A stretch of 47,511 bases of DNA from a virus (taxonomy: Duplodnaviria > Heunggongvirae > Uroviricota > Caudoviricetes), in IMG/VR virus record IMGVR_UViG_2541047920_000001, one strand, 5' to 3'. The notes beneath the pieces are model-generated. The model saw only the letters and a program-made list of their open reading frames with translations. It did not search any database and was not told where the DNA came from. Position 1 is the first letter of the stretch, and the number at the start of each line of letters is the position of its first letter. The position numbers were made by a program, and so were the translations under genes. Of the stretch, positions 1,641-18,971 are shown piece by piece.

Positions 1641-4112
1641 TTAAGAATCAGCCTGACTCGGGATCAGTTTTTGCCAGATAACTGAAACGTATTTTGCCTG
1701 GTAACGGGCGTCATCAAGTGCATTATGCCGCTCACCTTCGAATGGAATAGCCGTTCTGGCATCGAAGTCTATGGCTTTCCCCAGCTCAACGATTGTGCGT
1801 ACATCGCGATCGTTGTAGTAACGCCACGGGCAGGGGATCCCCTGCCGTTCGTATGAACGGCGCAAAATCGTGTTGTCGAAGTTGGCTCCATTTCCCCAGA
1901 CCTGAACAAAAAATTCACCGGAGTTTTCGTCGATAAATTCCCGCAATTGTAACAGTGCATCATCTAACGGGATTTCATCGGTCATAATGGCAGACTGCGC
2001 TTCACGTGATTGCTTCAGCCACCATTTAATGACGTCACGATCAATGACTCCGCCAGCAGTATTCAGATCTATGGTCTTGCTAAATTCCGGTCCCATATCT
2101 CCGGTTTGTGGATCGAAAAATATTGCGCCTATTGAGATAATCGGGGCATCAGGATTTTTTCCCATGGTTTCAAGGTCGATCATTAGATGGTCACACGTCC
2201 TGCTGGTGGATGTGATAACGTGATGACCGTTCACCGTAATTAAGGGATCTGCCGTCTCGCCAGTTTCACTATCGCTGGCGTGGTCCTGAGCGCTGCCAGC
2301 ATTCTCCTTGTGTGGATGTTCAGCGCCTTCCATTTTCTCCGAATCGTCTTCCTGAACTTCAACCTGGTTCTTGTCATCGAATGTTTCCTGGTATGTTGCG
2401 TCGCCCATCACCGCACCACATTCAGGGCAGTTGCCGCCGCCGGTCTGACCGCAGGCGGTGCAGATTTTTTCCGCTTCCTGTTGCGCTACTGGCTCAGGTT
2501 GTTTCGTTTCTGGCTCGTTTTGTAACGCATTTGGGCTGTTTTGTTCCGCTTTCTGGTCGTTCTGTTCCGTTTCTTGCTCGTTCTGGTTCACTGAATCGCG
2601 GGTTTCAATCCCCTTCACCCATTTCGGATCATTCGGATCGCTAATCCCTGCAACAAATTCACCACGTGATACAGCAAGCAACTGATTGGCGTCAGGCTGG
2701 CTGATATTGGCTGCCTGCATAATTTTGTTTACTTCGTCAGCGGTAATTTTTACCGGCTCTGGTTGTGCGGTCGTGTCAGATGCACCAGTATTTTGTTGTG
2801 AACCTGAGTATGTACCGTTTTTGCGGGCGAAATATTCTTCTTTCGTGATTTCAGTAGCCCCGGCAGCCAGCGCCTTATCCAGACCAGAAAGTTTGTTTGC
2901 GCGACCGTATTTTTCGCCATCCTTGTCGGTAAAGAGGAAGTAGAACGGCCCCTCACGCTCTACAGATGGTTCGACTTCCACTTTGCATTCAGTTTTTTCG
3001 TTGCCCGGAATTGCCGTTTCCACTGCATCAGTTTCTGGTACTGGCGACGAGAGAGTATCAGTTGCGCTCTGATTTGTTCCTTCATCTTCAAACACGCCCT
3101 TTGTAGTCAGGTATTTAGTAATGTATTTGTTCAGTGCCACAGGGTCTTTGTGAATGTCGATCGGACGTTCACGGACAAGGCCAAAAATAGTCTGGCGGTC
3201 GTAGCGAAGGGCATCAGGCTGTTTGCGCATTGATGCCGAGATACGCTTCCAGTCTTCGCGGTCGTTGTCGATAACTTCATTTTTTGCCCAGCGATGGATG
3301 CTGCCGTCAATGTTTCCGGCATCCACATCACCAGGCCAGAGAGCGTAGGCCAGTTCGTCATCCAGTGTTTTCCATGTCTGCTTGTATTCGCGATGAGTGG
3401 CAGCAATGACCGGGTTGATTTTTCCTGTTGAATTTTCAGTGTGCTGTTGATTGGCTCTGGCGCGGGCGAGATCAACAACAGACGTGTATTTTCCGGTTTC
3501 CTTGCGTTCATTTTCGCGACGTTTTTTCCAGATGCGCATCTCTGCCTGAATTTCGGGCCATTTAGCTCCAGGATTACATTTATGTTTAACCCACCCGATG
3601 GCATGCAGCTTAAGCTCCGGATACATGGCGTTAACTTCTGGCATTTTCATCAACGCTTCAACGATATGTCCGTCGAATGTTGCCATGTCTTCCTGCAACA
3701 ATTCCTGCGCGCTAATCACCATATCAACGGTGATGTTTTCACATGTGTCGAACTTAACCATGACAGCGTTCTGTACTTCAGGGGCCAGCTTGTCAAAAGT
3801 GACGTTCATCGGATCTGATTCAGTCTCAACCGGGACAAAGGAAGCAGACTCCTCATCCCAGCGGTTTTCCTGCATATATTCAGCATCCCAGGAATCGAGG
3901 GCAGGGCGGGGTATACCGGGTTTATCCTCGCAAACAAGAAATTTATAAGCGCAGTCCTGAGCAACCGGATAATGTTCCAGGAATTGCCAGTGAAATTTTG
4001 CGCGGGCGCGACGTTCATCACCGGCTTCAATGGCAGTGGCTACAGCGATTGCACCTTCTTCCTTTATTGCCTGTTCGTCCGGAATGGCGGCGCAAATAAA
4101 GACTTTACTCAT
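1641..4112 (-). CDS. Large early-region protein with C-terminal DEDDh (DnaQ/RNase T-like) 3'-5' exonuclease domain; YdfE-like
   Basis: 823-aa ORF. C-terminal about 180 aa carry exonuclease motifs (…IDLETMG…, …HNALDDARY…); central CxxC…CPxC zinc-ribbon-like motif; acidic Q/E-rich repeat region. Confidence 0.7.
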   Translation of the reverse strand: MSKVFICAAIPDEQAIKEEGAIAVATAIEAGDERRARAKFHWQFLEHYPVAQDCAYKFLVCEDKPGIPRPALDSWDAEYMQENRWDEESASFVPVETESDPMNVTFDKLAPEVQNAVMVKFDTCENITVDMVISAQELLQEDMATFDGHIVEALMKMPEVNAMYPELKLHAIGWVKHKCNPGAKWPEIQAEMRIWKKRRENERKETGKYTSVVDLARARANQQHTENSTGKINPVIAATHREYKQTWKTLDDELAYALWPGDVDAGNIDGSIHRWAKNEVIDNDREDWKRISASMRKQPDALRYDRQTIFGLVRERPIDIHKDPVALNKYITKYLTTKGVFEDEGTNQSATDTLSSPVPETDAVETAIPGNEKTECKVEVEPSVEREGPFYFLFTDKDGEKYGRANKLSGLDKALAAGATEITKEEYFARKNGTYSGSQQNTGASDTTAQPEPVKITADEVNKIMQAANISQPDANQLLAVSRGEFVAGISDPNDPKWVKGIETRDSVNQNEQETEQNDQKAEQNSPNALQNEPETKQPEPVAQQEAEKICTACGQTGGGNCPECGAVMGDATYQETFDDKNQVEVQEDDSEKMEGAEHPHKENAGSAQDHASDSETGETADPLITVNGHHVITSTSRTCDHLMIDLETMGKNPDAPIISIGAIFFDPQTGDMGPEFSKTIDLNTAGGVIDRDVIKWWLKQSREAQSAIMTDEIPLDDALLQLREFIDENSGEFFVQVWGNGANFDNTILRRSYERQGIPCPWRYYNDRDVRTIVELGKAIDFDARTAIPFEGERHNALDDARYQAKYVSVIWQKLIPSQADS

Positions 4113-4205
4113 TTTGTTTTAACCTCATGACAGATTTAAGGGTGAACAAATCCCTGCCATTGCTGGCATATAAGAATGAAATCGGATGTTTATTACGGAA
4201 CTGTT

Positions 4206-4397
4206 TTAAAGACCTGCCGGGATTTCGTTATTATCCTGGTGAATAACTTTATCGACAGGGTAACAGTTACCGGGAATTTTCTGTTCGGTTGCTGCAGTCA
4301 CACACTCCTGCATTGTCCTGTGAACACTGACTGCAATATCAACTGGTTCTCCGGAAACAAGAAAAACTGTCAGAACAAGTGCAAATGCTGTATTCAT
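4206..4397 (-). CDS. ydfD: YdfD-like small membrane (lysis) protein
   Basis: 63-aa product MNTAFALVLTVFLVSGEP… with hydrophobic N-terminus; start overlaps dicB stop (ATGA); matches my recollection of Qin YdfD. Confidence 0.6.
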   Translation of the reverse strand: MNTAFALVLTVFLVSGEPVDIAVSVHRTMQECVTAATEQKIPGNCYPVDKVIHQDNNEIPAGL

Positions 4398-4582
4398 TGC
4401 CAGCATCCTTTTTGTATCGGACGTAAACGGGCCAGCATTGAAAGAATGCATACTTTATTTAATAGCTCCCGTTCTTGTTTTCTCTTGTTAATGGCATCTT
4501 CAGTAAATACTGGGTTACTGATAGTGACACCAATTTCAAAACAACCTTCAGACGTATTAACGTTTGGTAATAACGTTTTCAT
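4394..4582 (-). CDS. dicB: DicB-like cell-division inhibitor
   Basis: 62-aa product MKTLLPNVNTSEGCFEIGVTISNPVFTEDAINKRKQERELL… recognised as DicB of the Qin/Kim prophage; lies just downstream of a DicF-like sRNA. Confidence 0.75.
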   Translation of the reverse strand: MKTLLPNVNTSEGCFEIGVTISNPVFTEDAINKRKQERELLNKVCILSMLARLRPIQKGCWQ

Positions 4583-4751
4583 TATCGCGTCCTCAACAAT
4601 GAATTTTGTGATGCAGTGCCTGGTGCCTCCAGGTGACGTTAACCAGTTAACAATTAACGTCGGATACAGAGAATCCACCCATAACACTGTTTTTGGTTTT
4701 AACTGTTCCGCGTGCGCTCAGCCGCATTCACCGCATCACAAAATTCACTTT

Positions 4752-4809
4752 AAAAACGGCGGCAGAGCAGTCACGGAGTAAAACTGATACCGCCAAACGT
4801 CACCAGAAA
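4752..4809 (-). ncRNA. dicF: DicF-like small regulatory RNA
   Basis: Minus-strand sequence UUUCUGGUGACGUUUGGCGGUAUCAGUUUUACUCCGUGACUGCUCUGCCGCC followed by a U-tract matches the DicF sRNA as I remember it; located between ydfA/B/C-like genes and dicB as in K-12. Confidence 0.7.
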
Positions 4810-5068
4810 ATTGATAACAGAGGGCGTTGCAGCGGGGTTGTCACTTAAGCGTATGGTCAACCTGACAACCCGGTGTCCTCAACGGGGAAGGAATAACCCC
4901 GCCATACTTACCGCCGCGCCATTTTGCGGGTTGCCACAACCGGAAGCGCACGGTCGAATTAAATTTAACGACACCGTACAGTGAGACGAACTTCGCCGTG
5001 CGCTTTCGTGTTGTGTGCCTGCTTTTAACCACGTCAGGCGAGGTGGTATCCTTAAAATCACCACAGTT

Positions 5069-5644
5069 TTAAGGATTCATTAAGCAATGTCGCAACCACC
5101 AATAAATCCGCTTAAGAACATGAAAATTGATTACTGGTATAAAGCGCTTACAGTTGTTGGCGCTGCGTTGTTTGTCTTTAATGGAACGTCTTTTTTTGAC
5201 AGATATCCCGTTGTTCCATTGGGTTTTTTGTCCTCCGGCATCTTTTTTATTGGTTTGGGGGAGTGGATTAATCACCCTCTCAAAGTGAGATTTATTGGTC
5301 CTGGAGTTTGGACTCGTGGATATAATCGTTCTTCGTGCGCACTCGGTATCATCTTCGACATACTTGGTTGTTTCCTGATTGTTACAGGAGTCGTCAAGTT
5401 CTTCTGATGTAAAACCGCAAATGGGGCACGTAACGGGAATTTTGAAAAGCGTTTCTCCGGGTTCCAGAACAAAATTTTCTGCGGTCTGATTTTGCTTCTC
5501 ATATTTGTGCTCCGCGTCATTGTGAGAGCACATTCTTATTCTGAGTGCCTGTTTAAACTCACTGAAGCTGAGAGCTTCTTCGCCTTCGGCAAGGCCTTCG
5601 AAGTATTCTTCGTAAGCCTTTTCCATGATTGTGTCGAAATCCAT
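5069..5644 (-). CDS. YdfB/YdfC-like early protein (extent uncertain)
   Basis: Start MDFDTIMEKAYEEYFEG… with CPICGF zinc-ribbon-like motif; N-terminal about 90 aa look protein-like, the C-terminal K/R/N-rich tail may be read-through; overlaps a plus-strand hydrophobic ORF. Confidence 0.4.
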   Translation of the reverse strand: MDFDTIMEKAYEEYFEGLAEGEEALSFSEFKQALRIRMCSHNDAEHKYEKQNQTAENFVLEPGETLFKIPVTCPICGFTSEELDDSCNNQETTKYVEDDTECARRTIISTSPNSRTNKSHFERVINPLPQTNKKDAGGQKTQWNNGISVKKRRSIKDKQRSANNCKRFIPVINFHVLKRIYWWLRHCLMNP

Positions 5645-5645
5645 A

Positions 5646-5801
5646 TCACTCACCTGAGTTTCTTTCCAGCCAGCGACGGGCACCATTTTCGGTTTTAAAC
5701 GTTTTGCTTTTGGTATACGTCATCGCGGTGAACGTGCCGTCCTGGTTGGGAAACACGCCGTACACCAGAGATTCGCTGTTGCCAAGATCGATAGTATCCA
5801 T
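5646..5801 (-). CDS. ydfA: YdfA-like small protein
   Basis: 51-aa product MDTIDLGNSESLVYGVFPNQDGTFTAMTYTKSKTFKTENGARRWLERNSGE; first gene downstream of the repressor gene on the minus strand. Confidence 0.55.
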   Translation of the reverse strand: MDTIDLGNSESLVYGVFPNQDGTFTAMTYTKSKTFKTENGARRWLERNSGE

Positions 5802-6093
5802 GCTGACCTCATTTCCCCTTAACGCCGGGGTAGCGGAACAAAAACCTGCTGCATAGTTATTAAAGTTGAACCCTGCCGTCATGTTCTTACGCCTCGGGCT
5901 GGCTACTTAACCCCTGACCACTGCCTGGTAACTCGAAGTATTGCCCTGCATTCTGTGGGGCGGGGTGAGAGAATGAATGAAGTTTAGAAAAATGAACATT
6001 TAAGGTCAATGTTTTTTTATCAAAACATTTTAAGCAGGCAGCTGTTACGCCATCACTACGATGGCATACAGTTAATCAAATAGATGAGGTTGG

Positions 6094-6732
6094 TTAAATA
6101 TCTTGTTGAATTTTAAAGCATACTCCCAATATGCAAGATAGATCATCCAGCATAATTGAAGGGTAGCGAGGATTCGTGGGGACTAAAAGAATATCCGGCC
6201 CTTCTATCTCCAGTTTGCGAATGACAGGCGTTGTGGTCCCTTTGGGTAAGGCAAGGACAATATTTCCTGGTTGTACGATTCGATCGGGATCAACAAAAAC
6301 TGTTGAACCATTTGGGATGGAAACTCCACCACCAGATGTCGACATACTGTCACTCTCTAGAACAACAGCAAAGGTATTGGCCGGGATTTCTCCGACAAGC
6401 TGCACACAAGAGGTTATTGAGGAATTTTTCATATAATCACTCCAGCTTGCTGCCTGCTGAAGTGATAGTAGCGGAACCGTTTTTATCGGCGGTAAAGATA
6501 GATCAAGCGAATCACCTGTATTTAACTCTCCTCCATTAAGAAGCCAATTTTCGTTTACTTTCAATATCTTTGCCAGTGAGCTTATGTAACGCGAGGACGG
6601 CGCTCCTCCACCGTTCATCCATTGACTTACGGAGCCTTTTGATGCGCCAGTGGCATTGACAAGGTCTTTGCCTTTCAAGTTTAGCGCATGCATACGTTGG
6701 GTTATGCGTTCAGATATTGTTTGCTTGTTCAT
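6094..6732 (-). CDS. CI-like prophage repressor (HTH domain + LexA/S24-type autopeptidase domain)
   Basis: 212 aa; N-terminal HTH (…LKGKDLVNATGASKGSVSQWMNG…), C-terminal S24-like segment; divergent from a cro-like gene. Confidence 0.85.
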   Translation of the reverse strand: MNKQTISERITQRMHALNLKGKDLVNATGASKGSVSQWMNGGGAPSSRYISSLAKILKVNENWLLNGGELNTGDSLDLSLPPIKTVPLLSLQQAASWSDYMKNSSITSCVQLVGEIPANTFAVVLESDSMSTSGGGVSIPNGSTVFVDPDRIVQPGNIVLALPKGTTTPVIRKLEIEGPDILLVPTNPRYPSIMLDDLSCILGVCFKIQQDI

Positions 6733-6794
6733 GTTTTGATTTTAAAACACAGATGGTTTTGTTTCTTGACTTTCTTTGGTTTTGATTATTAAAC
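6733..6794. promoter_or_regulatory. Divergent promoter/operator region with two similar 16-bp operator-like sites
   Basis: GTTTTGATTTTAAAAC (6733-6748) and GTTTTGATTATTAAAC (6779-6794) share a GTTTT…AAAC inverted-repeat frame; TTGACT -35-like hexamer at 6765-6770 for rightward transcription. Confidence 0.4.
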
Positions 6795-6823
6795 TTTTGG
6801 CGTTCAGTTTTATGGAGCGAATC

Positions 6824-7066
6824 ATGAAAAAATCAGAAGTATTAGGCTATTTTGGCGGAGTTGTTAAAACAGCCGCCGCTCTAGGAACGTCAAAAACCAC
6901 AGTCAGCATGTGGGGGGAAGACGTTCCGTGGAAATGGGCGTTGCTAATTCAGGCAGTCACTGCCGGGGCGCTCAAATATGAGTTACACATACCGACGGTT
7001 GTCATTCCCGGTTCTGATCATAATCCGCCTTCTAACCAAGGGGGGATTCATGAAAATCAAGCATGA
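6824..7066 (+). CDS. Cro-like / YdaS-like small HTH regulator
   Basis: 80 aa from ATG at 6824 (GGAG RBS); divergent from repressor; small protein typical of lambdoid cro position. Confidence 0.6.
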   Translation: MKKSEVLGYFGGVVKTAAALGTSKTTVSMWGEDVPWKWALLIQAVTAGALKYELHIPTVVIPGSDHNPPSNQGGIHENQA

Positions 7067-7475
7067 ACACATCCGCATGGCGATGAATGCCTGGGCACGT
7101 CCTGATGGCGAAAAAGTTCCGGCAGCTGGAATAACCCAGGCTTATTTTGAGTTGGGTATGACGTTTCCTAAACTGTACGACGACAGCCATCCGGAAGCCC
7201 TGGCTCGCAATACCCAGAAAATTTTCCGCTGGATAGAGAAAGACACCCCTGATGCAGTTGAAAAAATTCAGGCGTTGTTACCAGCGATCGAAAAGGCAAT
7301 GCCACCTTTGCTGGTGGCCAGAATGCGCAGCCACAGTTCAGCTTATTTTCGGGAGCTGGTGGAGACGCGGGAGCGACTGGTGAGAGACGCTGATGATTTT
7401 GTCGCAGTGGCAATCGCCGGTTTCAATCAGATGAACCGTGGTGGCCCGGCTGGAAATGCTGTGGCAGTACATTGA
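7050..7475 (+). CDS. CII-like / YdaT-like regulatory protein
   Basis: 141 aa (MKIKHEHIRMAMNAWARPDGEKV…) in the cII position between cro-like and replication genes. Confidence 0.5.
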   Translation: MKIKHEHIRMAMNAWARPDGEKVPAAGITQAYFELGMTFPKLYDDSHPEALARNTQKIFRWIEKDTPDAVEKIQALLPAIEKAMPPLLVARMRSHSSAYFRELVETRERLVRDADDFVAVAIAGFNQMNRGGPAGNAVAVH

Positions 7476-7546
7476 CTGACAATAGCCATATCGAATCGCT
7501 TCCGGCAACTCGTGAGTAAAAAGATTCGGTATCAGAAGAGGTGAGT

Positions 7547-8617
7547 ATGGCTAACGCCTGGCTCAGATTATGGCATGACATGCCAAATGACCCTAAGTGG
7601 CGAACAATTGCCAGGGTGTCAGGGCAGCCAATTGCAACAGTGATGGCAGTGTATATCCACCTCCTGGTGAGCGCGTCACGAAATGTCACGCGAGGTCACA
7701 TTGATGTCACGACAGAAGATTTGGCAAGTGCGCTCGACGTGACAGAAGAGGTAATTGATTCAATTTTGCAGACGATGCAGGGGCGGGTACTTGATGGTGA
7801 TTTAATCACTGGATGGGAAAAACGCCAGGTGCTGAAAGAGGACAACGGTAATATTTCGCAAACCGCAAAATCTCCGGCAGAGCGCAAGAGGGCGCAGCGA
7901 GAGAGGGAAAGAAAGCGGGAACAAAATGGCGATTGTCACGGCGAGTCACGAAATGTCACGCACATGTCACGACGAGTCACGACAGATAAAGATACAGATA
8001 AAGATACAGATCAAGAAGATCAAAACACTATGGTCCATGGCGTAAAAAACGCCGCGAACCAGGCAGGGGATGTTCAGACCGTCAATCTTGGTCAGCCAGC
8101 AGGCACGACACCGGAAGCCGATTCAGCGTATGCGCTGAAAGCCGATTCGGGCGCTGTGCAGCAGGTGATGACCGCAAGGCAGGAGCAATCACACCAACTT
8201 CAGCAGCCTGAAGCCGATTCCGCCATTCAGCGGGAAGCCGATCGGGTAGTCCCGGAAAACACCGGGCAGCCTGTGGGACGAGTGGATTATCCTGATGTGT
8301 TCGAACAGGTCTGGCGGGAATACCCGTTGCGTGCCGGGGCAAGCCCGAAGAAATCCGCTTTCAGTGCCTGGAAGGCCAGATTACGCGAGGGGGTGCCACC
8401 AGAGGCCATGCTGGATGGCGTGAGGCGTTACGCAAGATACCTGGCGGCTACCGGGAAAACGGGAACGGAATTTGTTCAGCGAGCGACGACGTTTTTTGGA
8501 CCGGACCGGAATTTTGAAAACCCCTGGTTGCTCCCGGTAAGCGGTACGAACAACCAGCGTTGTGTGAATCATATTTCTGAACCGGATACCGAAATTCCAC
8601 CGGGCTTCAGGGGGTAA
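7547..8617 (+). CDS. Replication initiation protein (lambda O-like position) carrying internal origin iterons
   Basis: 356 aa; N-terminus …WLRLWHDMPNDPKWRTIARVSG…; GTCAC(G) iteron clusters lie within its coding sequence. Confidence 0.65.
   Translation: MANAWLRLWHDMPNDPKWRTIARVSGQPIATVMAVYIHLLVSASRNVTRGHIDVTTEDLASALDVTEEVIDSILQTMQGRVLDGDLITGWEKRQVLKEDNGNISQTAKSPAERKRAQRERERKREQNGDCHGESRNVTHMSRRVTTDKDTDKDTDQEDQNTMVHGVKNAANQAGDVQTVNLGQPAGTTPEADSAYALKADSGAVQQVMTARQEQSHQLQQPEADSAIQREADRVVPENTGQPVGRVDYPDVFEQVWREYPLRAGASPKKSAFSAWKARLREGVPPEAMLDGVRRYARYLAATGKTGTEFVQRATTFFGPDRNFENPWLLPVSGTNNQRCVNHISEPDTEIPPGFRG
7672..8012 (+). repeat. Putative replication origin: two GTCACG iteron clusters plus adjacent GATAAAGATACAGA direct repeat
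   Basis: GTCAC(G/A) at 7675, 7685, 7695, 7706 and at 7935, 7945, 7955, 7966, 7976 with about 10-11 bp phasing; 17-mer GTCACGAAATGTCACGC occurs twice; followed by gataaagatacagataaagatacaga (7983-8012). Confidence 0.5.
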
Positions 8618-8657
8618 GTGTGTATTTCAGGTCATGAGGTAATTTTCAGGAGGACTT

Positions 8658-9083
8658 GTGGCAAAAGTTTTTACACAAGAAGAGCGAGAAAAAATTAAGG
8701 GGCTGGTTGTTGAACTTGTACGTCTGAGTGGTCGCGAGACGTTACGGGCTCTGGAGGCTAAAACCGGTGCATCAAGGTATTACATAAGCACTCTCGCCAG
8801 AGAGCTGGTTGCCAGCGGCGATGTATACAACTCTGGTTACGGATTATTCCCGTCTGAACAGGCTCGTAAGGACTGGCAAAATGCCCGCAAAAAACTCTCA
8901 AGGGCAAAGCTGAAGAAAAAAACATCTGTGGTTGATCCGGACCTTATCTGGTCATTACCTGACGGAGAAATACGTCGCTACGACAGTCGTCTAAACATAA
9001 TCTGTCGCGAGTGCCGGAAGAGCGAAGTTATGCAGCGTGTTCTGACGTTTTATCAGGGGAATTATCGGGAGGTGATGCTGTGA
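8658..9083 (+). CDS. Hypothetical protein, possible HTH-containing nin-region protein
   Basis: 141-aa ORF with GTG start after AGGAGGA RBS; basic K/R-rich segment. Confidence 0.5.
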   Translation: MAKVFTQEEREKIKGLVVELVRLSGRETLRALEAKTGASRYYISTLARELVASGDVYNSGYGLFPSEQARKDWQNARKKLSRAKLKKKTSVVDPDLIWSLPDGEIRRYDSRLNIICRECRKSEVMQRVLTFYQGNYREVML

Positions 9084-9313
9084 GTACATCGGCTACCATT
9101 CTCGACATGTGCTGTGGCAGTCGCATGCTCTGGTTCGATAAGAATGACGAATGGTCGATATTTAGCGATATCAGGAAAGAGGAACATTCGCTATGTGATG
9201 GACGTCACCCGATTATTAATCCCGACATTATCGCTGATTTTCGTGCGCTGCCGTGGTTGTCTGCTTTGCATCAAAAGCAGACATTACCAGATTTAGACAT
9301 CTGTTTCCGATAG
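9080..9313 (+). CDS. Small ORF with class-I methyltransferase motif-I-like N-terminus (possible gene remnant)
   Basis: 77 aa from GTG (GGGAGG RBS); sequence …[14 protein letters not shown]… resembles a SAM-binding motif I but the ORF is far too short for a methyltransferase. Confidence 0.3.
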
Positions 9314-9366
9314 CCCGTTCTGATGCTACACTTTTTGCTATTTTCATGAACCTCATAAACACATTT

Positions 9367-10032
9367 ATGACTGTTGCTGATTTCAAACGCCCCAAATTGG
9401 AGCTCCCAAACGGGGCAAAAAAACTATTACTGCACTCTTGCTGTGCTCCATGTTCCGGTGAAGTGATGGAGGCGCTTCAGGCCTCGGGAATCGACTACAC
9501 CATCTTTTTCTACAACCCGAACATTCATCCTCAGAAAGAGTATTTAATTCGTAAGGATGAGAATATTCGCTTTGCTAAACAACACGGCGTGCCATTTATT
9601 GATGCTGATTACGACACAGACAACTGGTTTGAGCGAGCCAAAGGAATGGAATGGGAGCCTGAACGAGGGATCCGTTGTACCATGTGTTTTGACATGCGTT
9701 TTGAGCGGACTGCACTGTATGCCGCTGAAAATGGTTTCAGTGTGATCAGTAGCTCACTGGGCATTTCACGCTGGAAAAATATGCAGCAGGTTAACGACTG
9801 TGGACGGCGAGCCGTCGCGCATTATCCGGGCATGGTGTACTGGGATTATAACTGGCGAAAACAGGGCGGCTCTTCCCGCATGATTGAAATCAGCAAGCGC
9901 GAACAATTCTATCAGCAGGAATATTGTGGCTGCGTGTATTCACTGCGCGATACCAATCTACACCGCAAATCTCAGGGACGCCCTCTAATCAAAATTGGTC
10001 AACTGCACTACGGTAAGGAAGGACAGGAATGA
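9367..10032 (+). CDS. queH: QueH-like (DUF208) epoxyqueuosine reductase homologue
   Basis: N-terminal …[14 protein letters not shown]… and later …RCTMCF… and …EYCGCVYS… cysteine motifs that I recognise as the QueH/DUF208 signature; about 221 aa (alternative start 9346). Confidence 0.65.
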
Positions 10033-10644
10033 TTTTATATTATGCCAACGGAGCGTAGCAGTGTTTCTATATATAGTACGCCTACCTTAATTTTCAAATA
10101 ATCATGATTAATGAGCAGGTCATCAGTGCAAGCAATGACCTGCTCATCTTGTTGAAATTAGAGGAAATCTTGCAGCCATGATATGGCTTAAAATAACGTT
10201 TGATTATTTTACCTGCTGTTTGTCCCTGGTTTAAAGTCGGTTGTCTGATTTGATTACGCGCAACTGACGCTTACGTATTGAAGTAACGAGCACGAAGACA
10301 CATATTTATCAGTGCCTGTATACGTCAAGAGCAGGAGATTTATGTGCTGGTTCTCAAATGCACGCTGGCTATTGTGGCTGTAATGGCAATTTATTGTCTT
10401 GTTATTGTTCTTATGGATCACCTTTCTGATTGATTTCATATTGGCGAGGTAGCGGTAGTTAAGTAGAATGGCTGCGGGTGCTTGAGGCTATCTGCCTCGG
10501 GCATGAACACCAACGGCAGATAGAGAAAAGCCCCAGTTAACATTACGCGTCCTGCAAGACGCTTAACATTAATCTGAGGCCAATTTCATGCTAGACACAT
10601 GTAGGTTAGCCTCTTACGTGCCGGAAGGCAAGGAGAAGCAGGCT

Positions 10645-10800
10645 ATGAAGCAGCAAAAGGCGATGTTAATCGCCCTGATCGTCATCTGTTTAACCGTCAT
10701 AGTGACGGCACTGGTAACGAGGAAAGACCTCTGCGAGGTACGAATCCGAACCGGCCAGACGGAGGTCGCTGTCTTCACAGCTTACGAACCTGAGGAGTAA
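10645..10800 (+). CDS. hokD: Hok/Gef family membrane toxin (HokD/RelF-like)
   Basis: 51-aa product MKQQKAMLIALIVICLTVIVTALVTRKDLCEVRIRTGQTEVAVFTAYEPEE; RBS GGAGAAG; an in-frame upstream extension gives the listed ORF 10588..10800. Confidence 0.85.
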   Translation: MKQQKAMLIALIVICLTVIVTALVTRKDLCEVRIRTGQTEVAVFTAYEPEE

Positions 10801-15057: not shown

Positions 15058-15600
15058 TGCTTTAAATGGGGCAATAGAGATATTGAATCTCATCCCGGGA
15101 TAAACATTGGGAGTTGAAGGTCCACGCGAACCATTTATCCGGCAAAATTCCACGCGTAATCCTGTGGTAATTTCTTCTGCATCTCGAAGATTGAGAGCTG
15201 AAACGTGAAGCTGGGCATCGATACGCCATCGGATGGGAATATAAGACCTTTGCTGCTTTTGTAGTCAAAGTTTTTGACAATTCCTGTCATTTTAGGGGAC
15301 AGAAAAACTCCTTAATACTGATAACCTGGTGCACCATACACACGTTCCTGGAGAAAACTACTTTGTTGATAGGGTTGAAGGTGGCTGGATGTCTAAAATA
15401 AACATTGCTTCATATGTTCAACTATGAGTTAATGACTGCGTCGGTTTGAAGAACAGACGATATACGAAGTAGTTTACTAAAGCAGTTCTCATTTCAGGTG
15501 TTATTCACTTATTCCTTCTTTGAGTCTCTCCAATTAAGTACGAAGTCGTTTCTGTTATGCAAACCATTTATGCCGAAAGGCTCAAGTTAAGGAATGTAGA

Positions 15601-15816
15601 ATGTCAAATAAAATGACTGGTTTAGTAAAATGGTTTAACGCTGATAAAGGTTTCGGCTTTATTTCTCCTGTTGATGGTAGTAAAGATGTGTTTGTGCATT
15701 TTTCTGCGATTCAGAATGATAATTATCGAACCTTATTTGAAGGTCAAAAGGTTACCTTCTCTATAGAGAGTGGTGCTAAAGGTCCTGCAGCAGTAAATGT
15801 CATCATTACTGATTAA
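15601..15816 (+). CDS. cspB: Cold-shock protein, CspA family (CspB-like)
   Basis: 71-aa product [23 protein letters not shown]… with RNP1-like KGFGFI and VFVHF motifs; long 5' leader. Confidence 0.85.
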
Positions 15817-16097
15817 AATTCATCGCTCGTCTGTATACGATAACGAAGAAGGCTGATGCCTGAGTAGAGATACGGACAGAGTAGTGAATATTGGATCTCT
15901 TTAATAAAAAGTAAGGAGGTCCAATACATGAAACAATGGCCAGCATATTTGGCAAAATCTTAATCAGGAAAAGTATGCTAACCATTGTGGTGAAGTGCAG
16001 GTTTGCTGCATGAATAGTTTTACAGCAGAAGCTAACTGCTGGCATGGCAAAACAAAGTGCGTAAGTGGATGACTCCCACAAAAAGCACCACAATCTC

Positions 16098-18125: not shown

Positions 18126-18487
18126 GGTAATATTAAATCGGAACATTTACATCGCGGAATGTAAAATTTAAATAAAAAGGACTCTTCCATGAGCCAAAAT
18201 TCCTGAAATCTTAAGGGTAAGATAAAAGGTCTTAATCAGAATGACACGTTTTATTAATAAATAAAGCTATTCTTTCATTGCTGTGTTTTTCTTTACAAAA
18301 GTAATCCTTGCTATGGGTGGTTAATCATGCGTTAATGGTGTTCTGGTTTGTTACAAATTTATCTGAAGCAGTCATTGTTATAATTTTATTATTTGTACCT
18401 CTTGAGATTTCCTTGTTGGTTTTTCTCTCTGATATTTTTTTTCGGACCATTCTGCCCAAGGGCTAATTTCTTCAAAAGGTAATAATT

Positions 18488-18700
18488 ATGTCTAACAAAA
18501 TGACTGGTTTAGTGAAATGGTTTAACCCTGAAAAAGGTTTTGGTTTCATCACGCCGAAAGATGGCAGCAAAGATGTGTTTGTCCATTTCTCAGCAATTCA
18601 GAGCAACGATTTCAAAACATTAACTGAGAATCAGGAAGTTGAATTTGGTATTGAGAACGGACCTAAAGGTCCTGCCGCTGTTCATGTAGTGGCGCTTTGA
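18488..18700 (+). CDS. cspI: Cold-shock protein, CspA family (CspI-like)
   Basis: 70-aa product [39 protein letters not shown]…; long AT-rich leader. Confidence 0.85.
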
Positions 18701-18971
18701 GGTAGACAATATTACAAACCATATTCACTTTAGATGCCCGTGTTGTCATGGTTCCCAGTATAGAACATCATCTTTTGATGTTTCTGACATGAATCCTTTC
18801 GGGGCAAAATGTATCTTTTGTAAATCAATGATGATTACATTTGATAATATTTCACAATACTTAAATGCCAGCCGTCTGTCGTTGGATTTAAAAAAGTGAA
18901 AATGAAGGCTCCTTCGGGAGCTTTTTTGCTTGGTATCTATTCGATGGATACTCACATACTACGGTAACATC

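Follow-up and report, generated by a model that had tools for sequence, protein, structure and literature searches.

Phased repeat arrays inside the initiator gene of a Qin-type prophage: a probable phage replication origin

The DNA considered here, referred to throughout as the window, is the whole 47,511-nucleotide viral record IMGVR_UViG_2541047920_000001, a Qin-type lambdoid prophage adjoining rspAB, and the element in question lies within its putative replication initiator gene (7547–8617). Positions 7675–8031 are probably the replication origin of the phage, embedded in the gene of the protein that recognises that origin. The segment is read in this way because its layout, with domain-specific repeats and an unwinding-prone tract placed inside an initiator gene of the early right operon, matches that of lambda ori and of SPP1 oriL. 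The original prediction, made from the letters of the window, had proposed that origin iterons lie within the initiator gene and that an A+T-rich unwinding region comes after them, and computational evidence from synonymous conservation, from about 60 homologues and from the position of the least stable tract lends support to that proposal. Three properties of this class of origin were found: clustered, non-random short repeats under selection as DNA; an easily melted A+T-rich tract directly adjoining the repeats; and a repeat sequence that co-varies with the cognate initiator, this last property being correlative only. By analogy with known origins, array B and the A+T-rich tract would form the origin core and array A would be auxiliary. 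The elements referred to below are the following:

7547–8617, + strand: open reading frame of the putative replication initiator gene, 356 amino acids
7675–7711, + strand: iteron array A, with direct GTCAC(G/A) cores at 7675, 7685, 7695 and 7706 (spacing 10, 10 and 11)
7739–7743, − strand: possible extra iteron core, inverted (GTGAC on the + strand), 28 bp past array A
7935–7981, + strand: iteron array B, with direct GTCACG cores at 7935, 7945, 7955, 7966 and 7976 (spacing 10, 10, 11 and 10)
7982–8031, + strand: A+T-rich tract with purines on the coding strand, a predicted DNA-unwinding element, formed by (ACAGATAAAGAT) x2.9 and then CAAGAAGATCAAAACAC

The phased arrays and the adjoining A+T-rich tract

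Nine GTCAC motifs, all on the + (coding) strand and all inside the open reading frame, make up the two arrays; eight of them read GTCACG, the exception being GTCACA at 7695, and the 17-mer GTCACGAAATGTCACGC is present in both arrays (7675–7691 and 7945–7961). The original prediction had described GTCAC(G) repeats about one helical turn apart in two clusters within the coding sequence, a 17-mer occurring twice and a GATAAAGATACAGA direct repeat after the arrays; all of these were located, the phasing is beyond chance, and GATAAAGATACAGA is contained in the 12-bp unit ACAGATAAAGAT, of which 2.9 copies lie at 7982–8016. The GTCAC pentamer alone is not enriched in the window (85 observed versus 79 expected). 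The phased form GTCACN5-6GTCAC has seven matches, all within the initiator gene, versus 0.09 expected, and none of 100 shuffles reached seven; other 5-mers in the window form at most three phased pairs each, and 1-kb tiles outside the initiator gene contain at most two, as do 98 tiles taken from the flanks of homologous loci. No second GTCACG array is present anywhere else in the window. When codons were shuffled synonymously so that the protein was kept, a mean of 3.1 and a maximum of 8 GTCAC motifs were obtained, and none of 5000 shuffles reached nine. A chance origin of the phased arrays is excluded. The inverted core at 7739–7743 is perhaps an auxiliary site: among homologues that have D-V-T/S here, 20 of 20 use GTG for the Val, while the third positions around it vary, and the GTGAC motif was found in 18 of the 24 GTCACG-type genes examined.

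The GTCACG arrays are under purifying selection as DNA. In 21 homologous genes that have the same core and 63–72% nucleotide identity to the window gene, third-codon positions within the four cores of array A are 98% conserved, versus 55% at 54 positions elsewhere with a conserved amino acid (Mann–Whitney p = 5e-6, computed over related loci). That the repeats have no function as DNA, and result from replication slippage or from a peptide that is repetitive or of low complexity, is accordingly most improbable. Such an explanation could draw on the repetitive peptide encoded by both arrays (RNVT..VTT), on the low-complexity linker (DKDTDKDTD) and on the different repeat numbers among alleles; yet the period of 10–11 bp is not a multiple of 3, the synonymous positions are near-invariant inside the cores and unlike those elsewhere, the cores of both arrays change in concert between lineages, and the observed count was never reached by the synonymous-codon shuffle. 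The cores use all three codon phases (2, 0, 1, 0 in array A; 1, 2, 0, 2, 0 in array B), so that the repeated peptides SRNVTRGHIDVTT and ESRNVTHMSRRVTT encoded by the arrays are dictated by the DNA repeat and are not its cause; the peptide repetitiveness pointed out in the original prediction is therefore real, but is a consequence of the DNA repeat.

The A+T-rich tract directly abuts array B. Its GC content (32–34%) is the minimum of the initiator gene, and the least stable 40-mer of the gene begins at 7986 (−43.4 kcal/mol versus a gene mean of −57.3, standard deviation 3.8). The 45 nt after array B exceed their gene in A+T content in 54 of 55 homologous loci (mean 64% versus 44%) and are on average purine-rich on the coding strand in these loci (71% versus 56%), being mostly (GATAAA)n, (GATACA)n or (GAGAA)n independently of the repeat core and of host GC. 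Codon choice indicates that the tract is selected as DNA, since GAT and AAA are favoured within it: over all loci, Asp is encoded by GAT in 89% of cases in the tract and in 45% in the rest of the gene, and Lys by AAA in 81% and 47%, respectively; in genes with a GC content of at least 58%, the corresponding values are 79% and 36% for Asp and 71% and 32% for Lys. The breakpoints of mosaic alleles, at gene nt 448–476, also fall within the tract, and N- and C-terminal modules are exchanged there.

Other signals were sought in the same region. DnaA boxes (TTATNCACA) with at most one mismatch are absent from 4257–8563, and their count in the whole window is at chance level; a DnaA-trio reading of the GAT-rich tract was dropped, as the strand polarity is wrong for trios. 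No known RNA family was found by an Rfam scan of 7400–8700, and a promoter-like match on the minus strand (7959–7932) does not exceed what chance would give in the region. The predicted unwinding tract includes two GATC (Dam) sites (8009–8012 and 8018–8021), and GATC is also present in this tract of several homologues (...AAAGATCTAAAAGAT...); these sites might serve methylation or SeqA control, or might be incidental.

Relatives, core types and candidate specificity residues

At least 80% of the initiator gene is present in 1647 of 5426 complete E. coli genomes, and mosaic alleles are found among them, some sharing only nt 1–458 of the gene and others only nt 448/476–1071. One allele, in which a window-type N-terminal part is joined to a DnaT-domain C-terminal part and a gene annotated ‘replication protein P’ follows, keeps both arrays; its array A has six copies through a 21-bp, two-unit in-frame insertion that adds 7 residues. 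Alleles with a window-type C-terminal part and an unrelated N-terminal domain have no GTCAC at all, and carry 11-bp-phased AAGGGGCTT repeats of their own in two clusters. Two such genes, from E. coli O157 86-24 (locus L002, 1981–3072) and from strain 3-72 (locus L003, 2013–3098), have an unrelated N-terminal domain (MRDYAKVSPRFW...) on the same C-terminal domain and a (GAACAG)n tract after the AAGGGGCTT clusters; this arrangement appears to be an independent case of the origin plan.

An earlier scan of viral contigs had yielded 80 copies with an identical N-terminal domain and hence no diversity; a scan of one genome per bacterial species added 59 further loci from Gamma-, Beta- and Alphaproteobacteria and from some metagenome-assembled genomes. 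The two-array plan occurs at matching gene positions in phages or prophages of Escherichia, Pseudomonas, Aeromonas, Ralstonia, Bordetella, Sphingomonas and others. In nearly all loci the top pentamer with 10–11-bp phasing forms two clusters, at gene nt ~130–165 and 330–500, and array B has 3–6 copies in nearly all homologues. The original prediction had named the absence of the repeats from related initiator genes as an observation that would speak against it; the plan is kept across about 60 homologues.

The repeat itself differs between lineages. Pseudomonas and Aeromonas phages whose N-terminal domain is 70% identical have arrays of GTCACG in matching positions of the gene. In Ralstonia phage Hennie (38% identical) both places are likewise occupied, by arrays of GCAACG, the homologous codons having changed in concert relative to the window gene, from GTC ACG / GGT CAC to GCA ACG / GGC AAC. 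Six core types were distinguished (GTCACG, CGAACGC, GGAACGC, GTAACGC, GCAACGC and GTGACGC), with ACG(C) in common; of the 53 loci with phased pairs in each of the two regions, 49 use one core for arrays A and B alike. A neighbour-joining tree was built from the N-terminal domain after masking of the loop that the iterons encode; it is rough and lacks support values. On this tree the core types are mostly clade-specific, and several independent switches of core type are apparent. As judged from these sequences, the arrays co-evolve with each other and with the surrounding N-terminal part of the protein.

With the iteron-encoded loop left aside, residues 114 and 117 are the alignment columns that track the core type best. 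They are separated by one turn of a basic helix (residues 110–126) in which R113 and R118 are invariant, and their codons do not overlap the repeat cores. The correspondence is as follows:

Core GTCACG: residue 114 K; residue 117 Q
Core CGAACGC: residue 114 A or S; residue 117 W
Core GGAACGC: residue 114 K; residue 117 W
Core GTAACGC: residue 114 V or A; residue 117 Y or F
Core GTGACGC: residue 114 T; residue 117 Y
Core GCAACGC: residue 114 S or A; residue 117 H or R

Held-out loci fit this correspondence, tree-displaced ones included (L120, K/Q; L118, V/Y; L133, A/H), and so does L137 (T/Y), which is tree-displaced and had been part of the first analysis. Residues 114 and 117 may read the variable 5' bases of the repeat, with phylogenetic confounding possible.

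Some further observations concern individual relatives. The initiator gene with its GTCACG arrays is unannotated, as a gap between coding sequences, at 2501–3400 of locus L004 (Pseudomonas phage phi1, KT887557) and at ~4001–4900 of locus L150 (CP137943), the latter record being a circular lambdoid phage genome of 50.9 kb that is filed as a plasmid of P. aeruginosa. In the plasmid collection, no small plasmid has this gene as its replicon; only large plasmids bearing prophages and two 50.9-kb circular phage genomes entered as plasmids contain it. In a Serratia sp. (L128) and a Pantoea sp. (L138), an extra domain (YVYYV...GISRNPWAR...) flanked by CTACGTAG-like repeats stands right after the N-terminal domain, at gene nt ~330–700, in the place expected for array B, and may be a nuclease-like insertion at the origin position.

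The initiator protein and its genomic setting

An AlphaFold model computed from a 20-sequence alignment divides the protein as follows, the conserved tail being listed after the modelled segments:

Residues 1–95: winged-helix N-terminal domain, modelled with confidence
Residues 110–126: basic helix
Residues 128–244: disordered linker
Residues 245–330: helical C-terminal domain, modelled with confidence
C-terminal end: conserved tail, ending ...EPDTEIPPGFRG

Array A codes for residues 43–55, a surface loop of low model confidence that connects two helices in the N-terminal domain, and array B for residues 130–145, the beginning of the disordered linker. In the model, both arrays are thus placed where the protein is predicted to tolerate arbitrary sequence, and repeat number can therefore change in frame (4 or 6 copies in array A). 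Within the linker, a 36-nt direct repeat (8111–8146 and 8207–8242, 75% identical) encodes PEADS..., and E. coli alleles vary by in-frame deletions around it, with protein lengths of 302–374 residues.

The protein matches PHROG 3729, ‘replication initiation protein’, from end to end (E 6e-256), and its cluster is named ‘phage replisome organizer’ by NCBI. For the whole protein, no Pfam family was found at E ≤ 0.01 and no significant family in NCBIfam and PDB sequence searches, and the C-terminal domain has no Pfam family. The N-terminal 126 residues align with positions 1–119 of the 121 of Pfam PF09681 (Phage_rep_org_N) at 16.6 bits, which is below the threshold of 23.3 (E 0.008); a scan of 36 relatives with the same family gave six matches, the best at E 0.01, and none lifts the match above threshold. 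TIGR01714 scores 15.5 bits versus a threshold of 49.8. A Foldseek comparison of the full model with the PDB returned nothing significant, probably owing to 43% disorder. The original prediction had called the gene O-like; Phage_rep_O is absent from the Pfam matches even when the N- and C-terminal parts are scanned separately at E ≤ 1, so that homology to lambda O has to be given up. On the model, the initiator is a ‘replisome organizer’-like protein with a putative winged helix of the DnaD-N type.

The final 24 residues of the protein (the tail named above) show a weak match (E 0.0014) to the DnaT model at its C-terminal end. The closing 63 nt of the gene (8555–8617, tail CVNHISEPDTEIPPGFRG) recur with 89–97% nucleotide identity at the 3' end of prophage initiator genes that are otherwise different and bear the annotation ‘phage O protein family’, ‘phage replication protein O’ or ‘HTH domain protein’ (helix-turn-helix). 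When the tail DNA was compared with E. coli genomes, dnaT was not matched, and nothing was found in a literature search for the tail peptide. The tail would be a short module common to these genes, perhaps a peptide by which a host protein is docked; as a hypothesis only, it might recruit host primosome components directly.

The initiator gene lies in the early right operon, downstream of cro and a cII-like gene. The order of the prophage genes is int, xis, exo, dicB, DicF, ydfA/B, S24 repressor, cro, ydaT/cII-like gene and initiator, followed by DUF977, queH and hokD/sok and later by ydfU, ydfT, cspB, essD and rrrQ. Directly downstream of the initiator, 8618–10100 contains a DUF977/Ren-like gene (8658–9083), a truncated methyltransferase gene and queH (ending at 10032). 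The free phage Tritos has a 98.6% identical initiator gene with the same arrays, with DUF977 directly next and without helicase or loader. In relatives, the gene after the initiator is P-like (‘replication protein P’), DnaC/IstB-like or dnaB. According to a 2025 survey, 34 of 314 lambdoid phages of Enterobacteriales encode an initiator only, and their replication is ‘not yet understood’ (PMC12315714).

Elsewhere in the window, the repressor reading frame (6094–6732, − strand) encodes 212 residues, with an N-terminal helix-turn-helix and an S24 peptidase domain; RefSeq, in an assembly with a 100% identical initiator gene, gives only the C-terminal 112 residues of this repressor (6094–6432) as a ‘LexA family transcriptional regulator’. 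The following elements were identified with Rfam, and DicF, sok and the cspA-type leaders are the usual cargo of Qin-type prophages:

4757–4808, − strand: DicF small RNA
10476–10650, + strand: sok antitoxin RNA beside hokD
15440–15863 and 18342–18727, + strand: two cspA-type thermoregulator leaders

Proposed mechanism, alternative readings and known systems

If 7675–8031 is the origin, initiator monomers would bind head to tail, on one face of the helix, along array B, and the initiator would also bind the auxiliary array A ~260 bp upstream. The nucleoprotein complex, together with transcription from the early rightward promoter, would melt the adjacent A+T-rich tract, and the C-terminal domain and the conserved tail would then bring the replicative helicase. 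Because neither this prophage nor Tritos encodes a helicase or a loader, host DnaB–DnaC would be recruited directly, possibly via the DnaT-like tail.

Several points weigh against this account. The prophage has no helicase or loader gene, which leaves one step of the mechanism unaccounted for. In a few relatives (L114, L116, L125, L109, L113 and L008), array A is missing or the repeats are few or irregular, and array A would for this reason be dispensable or of unclear role. The linkage between repeats and N-terminal domain is partly physical, as array A lies inside the coding sequence of that domain, and linkage alone is no proof of recognition. Moreover, the homologous loci are phylogenetically related, and the p-values (codon bias, synonymous conservation) therefore overstate how independent these loci are.

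The arrays could be sites at which the initiator, or a different phage protein, binds for regulation only, as in autorepression or titration, with the true origin elsewhere. Initiators of the iteron type commonly autoregulate, array A is 260 bp from the A+T-rich tract and missing in some relatives, as would suit an accessory or regulatory role, and G38P of SPP1 also binds at oriR, a second site, and is believed to stall forks there (PMC6316719). A pure operator, however, would have no need of the least stable A+T-rich tract to which array B is always joined and which is kept by codon choice; nor does the window offer a second GTCACG array, and the layout is that of experimentally proven origins (PMC5737612, PMC7466680). 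A purely regulatory role is thus rather improbable, and regulation and origin function are in any case compatible. Recognition by a host factor or another phage factor, with the arrays acting as a partition centromere, a packaging signal or a recombination hotspot at a module boundary, is considerably less probable still. Phased direct repeats of 10–11 bp in two clusters are also present in plasmid centromeres (R1 parC), and the junction of the mosaic N- and C-terminal modules does lie at the A+T-rich tract. The element integrates (int, xis), however, and no partition genes are nearby; packaging signals are located in terminase genes; the genes neighbouring loci with the same core vary; and lineages from one host genus differ in their core, the core following the N-terminal domain, a pattern that recognition by a host factor would leave unexplained.

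The origin reading would assign a concrete origin (7675–8031) to a replication module present in about one-third of complete E. coli genomes, a module mostly annotated ‘hypothetical protein’ and left unannotated in some Pseudomonas phage records, and would extend the plan of an origin inside the initiator gene to a family across three classes of Proteobacteria. It bears on those lambdoid phages that have an initiator and neither helicase nor loader. The six natural repeat specificities are a ready-made experiment on specificity switching between initiator and origin; incompatibility or interference in the replication of prophages that share a host cell would be predictable from an origin and its matching N-terminal domain, and the pair could be usable as orthogonal replicon parts. 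A wider proposal is offered tentatively and is rather doubtful: a large, undescribed family of proteobacterial phage origins, in which a single basic helix (residues 110–126) would read one-turn-spaced repeats of 6–7 bp through a code at positions 114 and 117, a second array would occupy the DNA that codes for a loop of the DNA-binding domain, and lambdoid members without a loader would use a DnaT-like tail on the host primosome or DnaB–DnaC.

The principle of an origin inside its initiator gene is textbook knowledge. In the open-access literature, no description was found of GTCACG iterons or of an origin for this protein family, and the papers on the ‘Eru’ replication regions of Stx phages mention neither iterons nor an origin. 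The distinctive features of the origin proposed here are the 6-bp direct cores spaced by one turn, the two co-evolving arrays, one of them in the segment coding for the DNA-binding domain, and the context without a loader.

In lambda, the iteron is about 19 bp long and is bound by dimers of O. Lambda ori combines iterons, each an inverted repeat, with an A+T-rich tract in the middle of gene O, and in Stx phages two extra iterons add 13 residues to O (PMC7466680). The window resembles this system in that iterons and an A+T-rich tract lie mid-gene in an initiator gene downstream of cro and cII in the early right operon, in that extra iterons lengthen the protein by in-frame residues, and in that the N-terminal domain and the origin travel as one module and the C-terminal domain as another. 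On the other hand, the window protein has no detectable homology to O; lambda has a single array of ~19-bp inverted-repeat iterons, whereas the window has two arrays of 6-bp direct cores with a period of 10–11 bp, the first of which, inside the segment coding for the DNA-binding domain, has no lambda counterpart; and lambda needs P to load DnaB, whereas this prophage has no P analogue.

Two further groups differ: the RepA_N plasmid initiators (RepA of pSK41 and relatives) belong to Gram-positive plasmids and show no detected sequence similarity, and DnaD, DnaB of B. subtilis and DnaT are host primosomal adaptors with no origin of their own, the C-terminal domain of the window protein having no Pfam match. 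In SPP1, oriL lies inside gene 38, has an A+T-rich unwinding element beside repeats bound by G38P, and is sufficient for in vitro replication (PMC5737612, PMC6316719). Here too the origin would lie within the gene of its own binding protein, with direct repeats and an adjacent A+T-rich unwinding element, and G38P is likewise of the ‘replisome organizer’ type with an N-terminal DNA-binding domain, the corresponding domain of the window protein aligning with Phage_rep_org_N end to end at a sub-threshold score. SPP1 differs in having a loader (G39P) and a helicase (G40P) of its own, neither of which this prophage has, and a second distant site, oriR, none being seen in this window, whereas the window has two arrays, one of them in the segment coding for the DNA-binding domain. 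Since the gene is not O-like by homology and its product is ‘replisome organizer’-like, G38P and oriL of SPP1 would be the closer precedent, and lambda an analogue.

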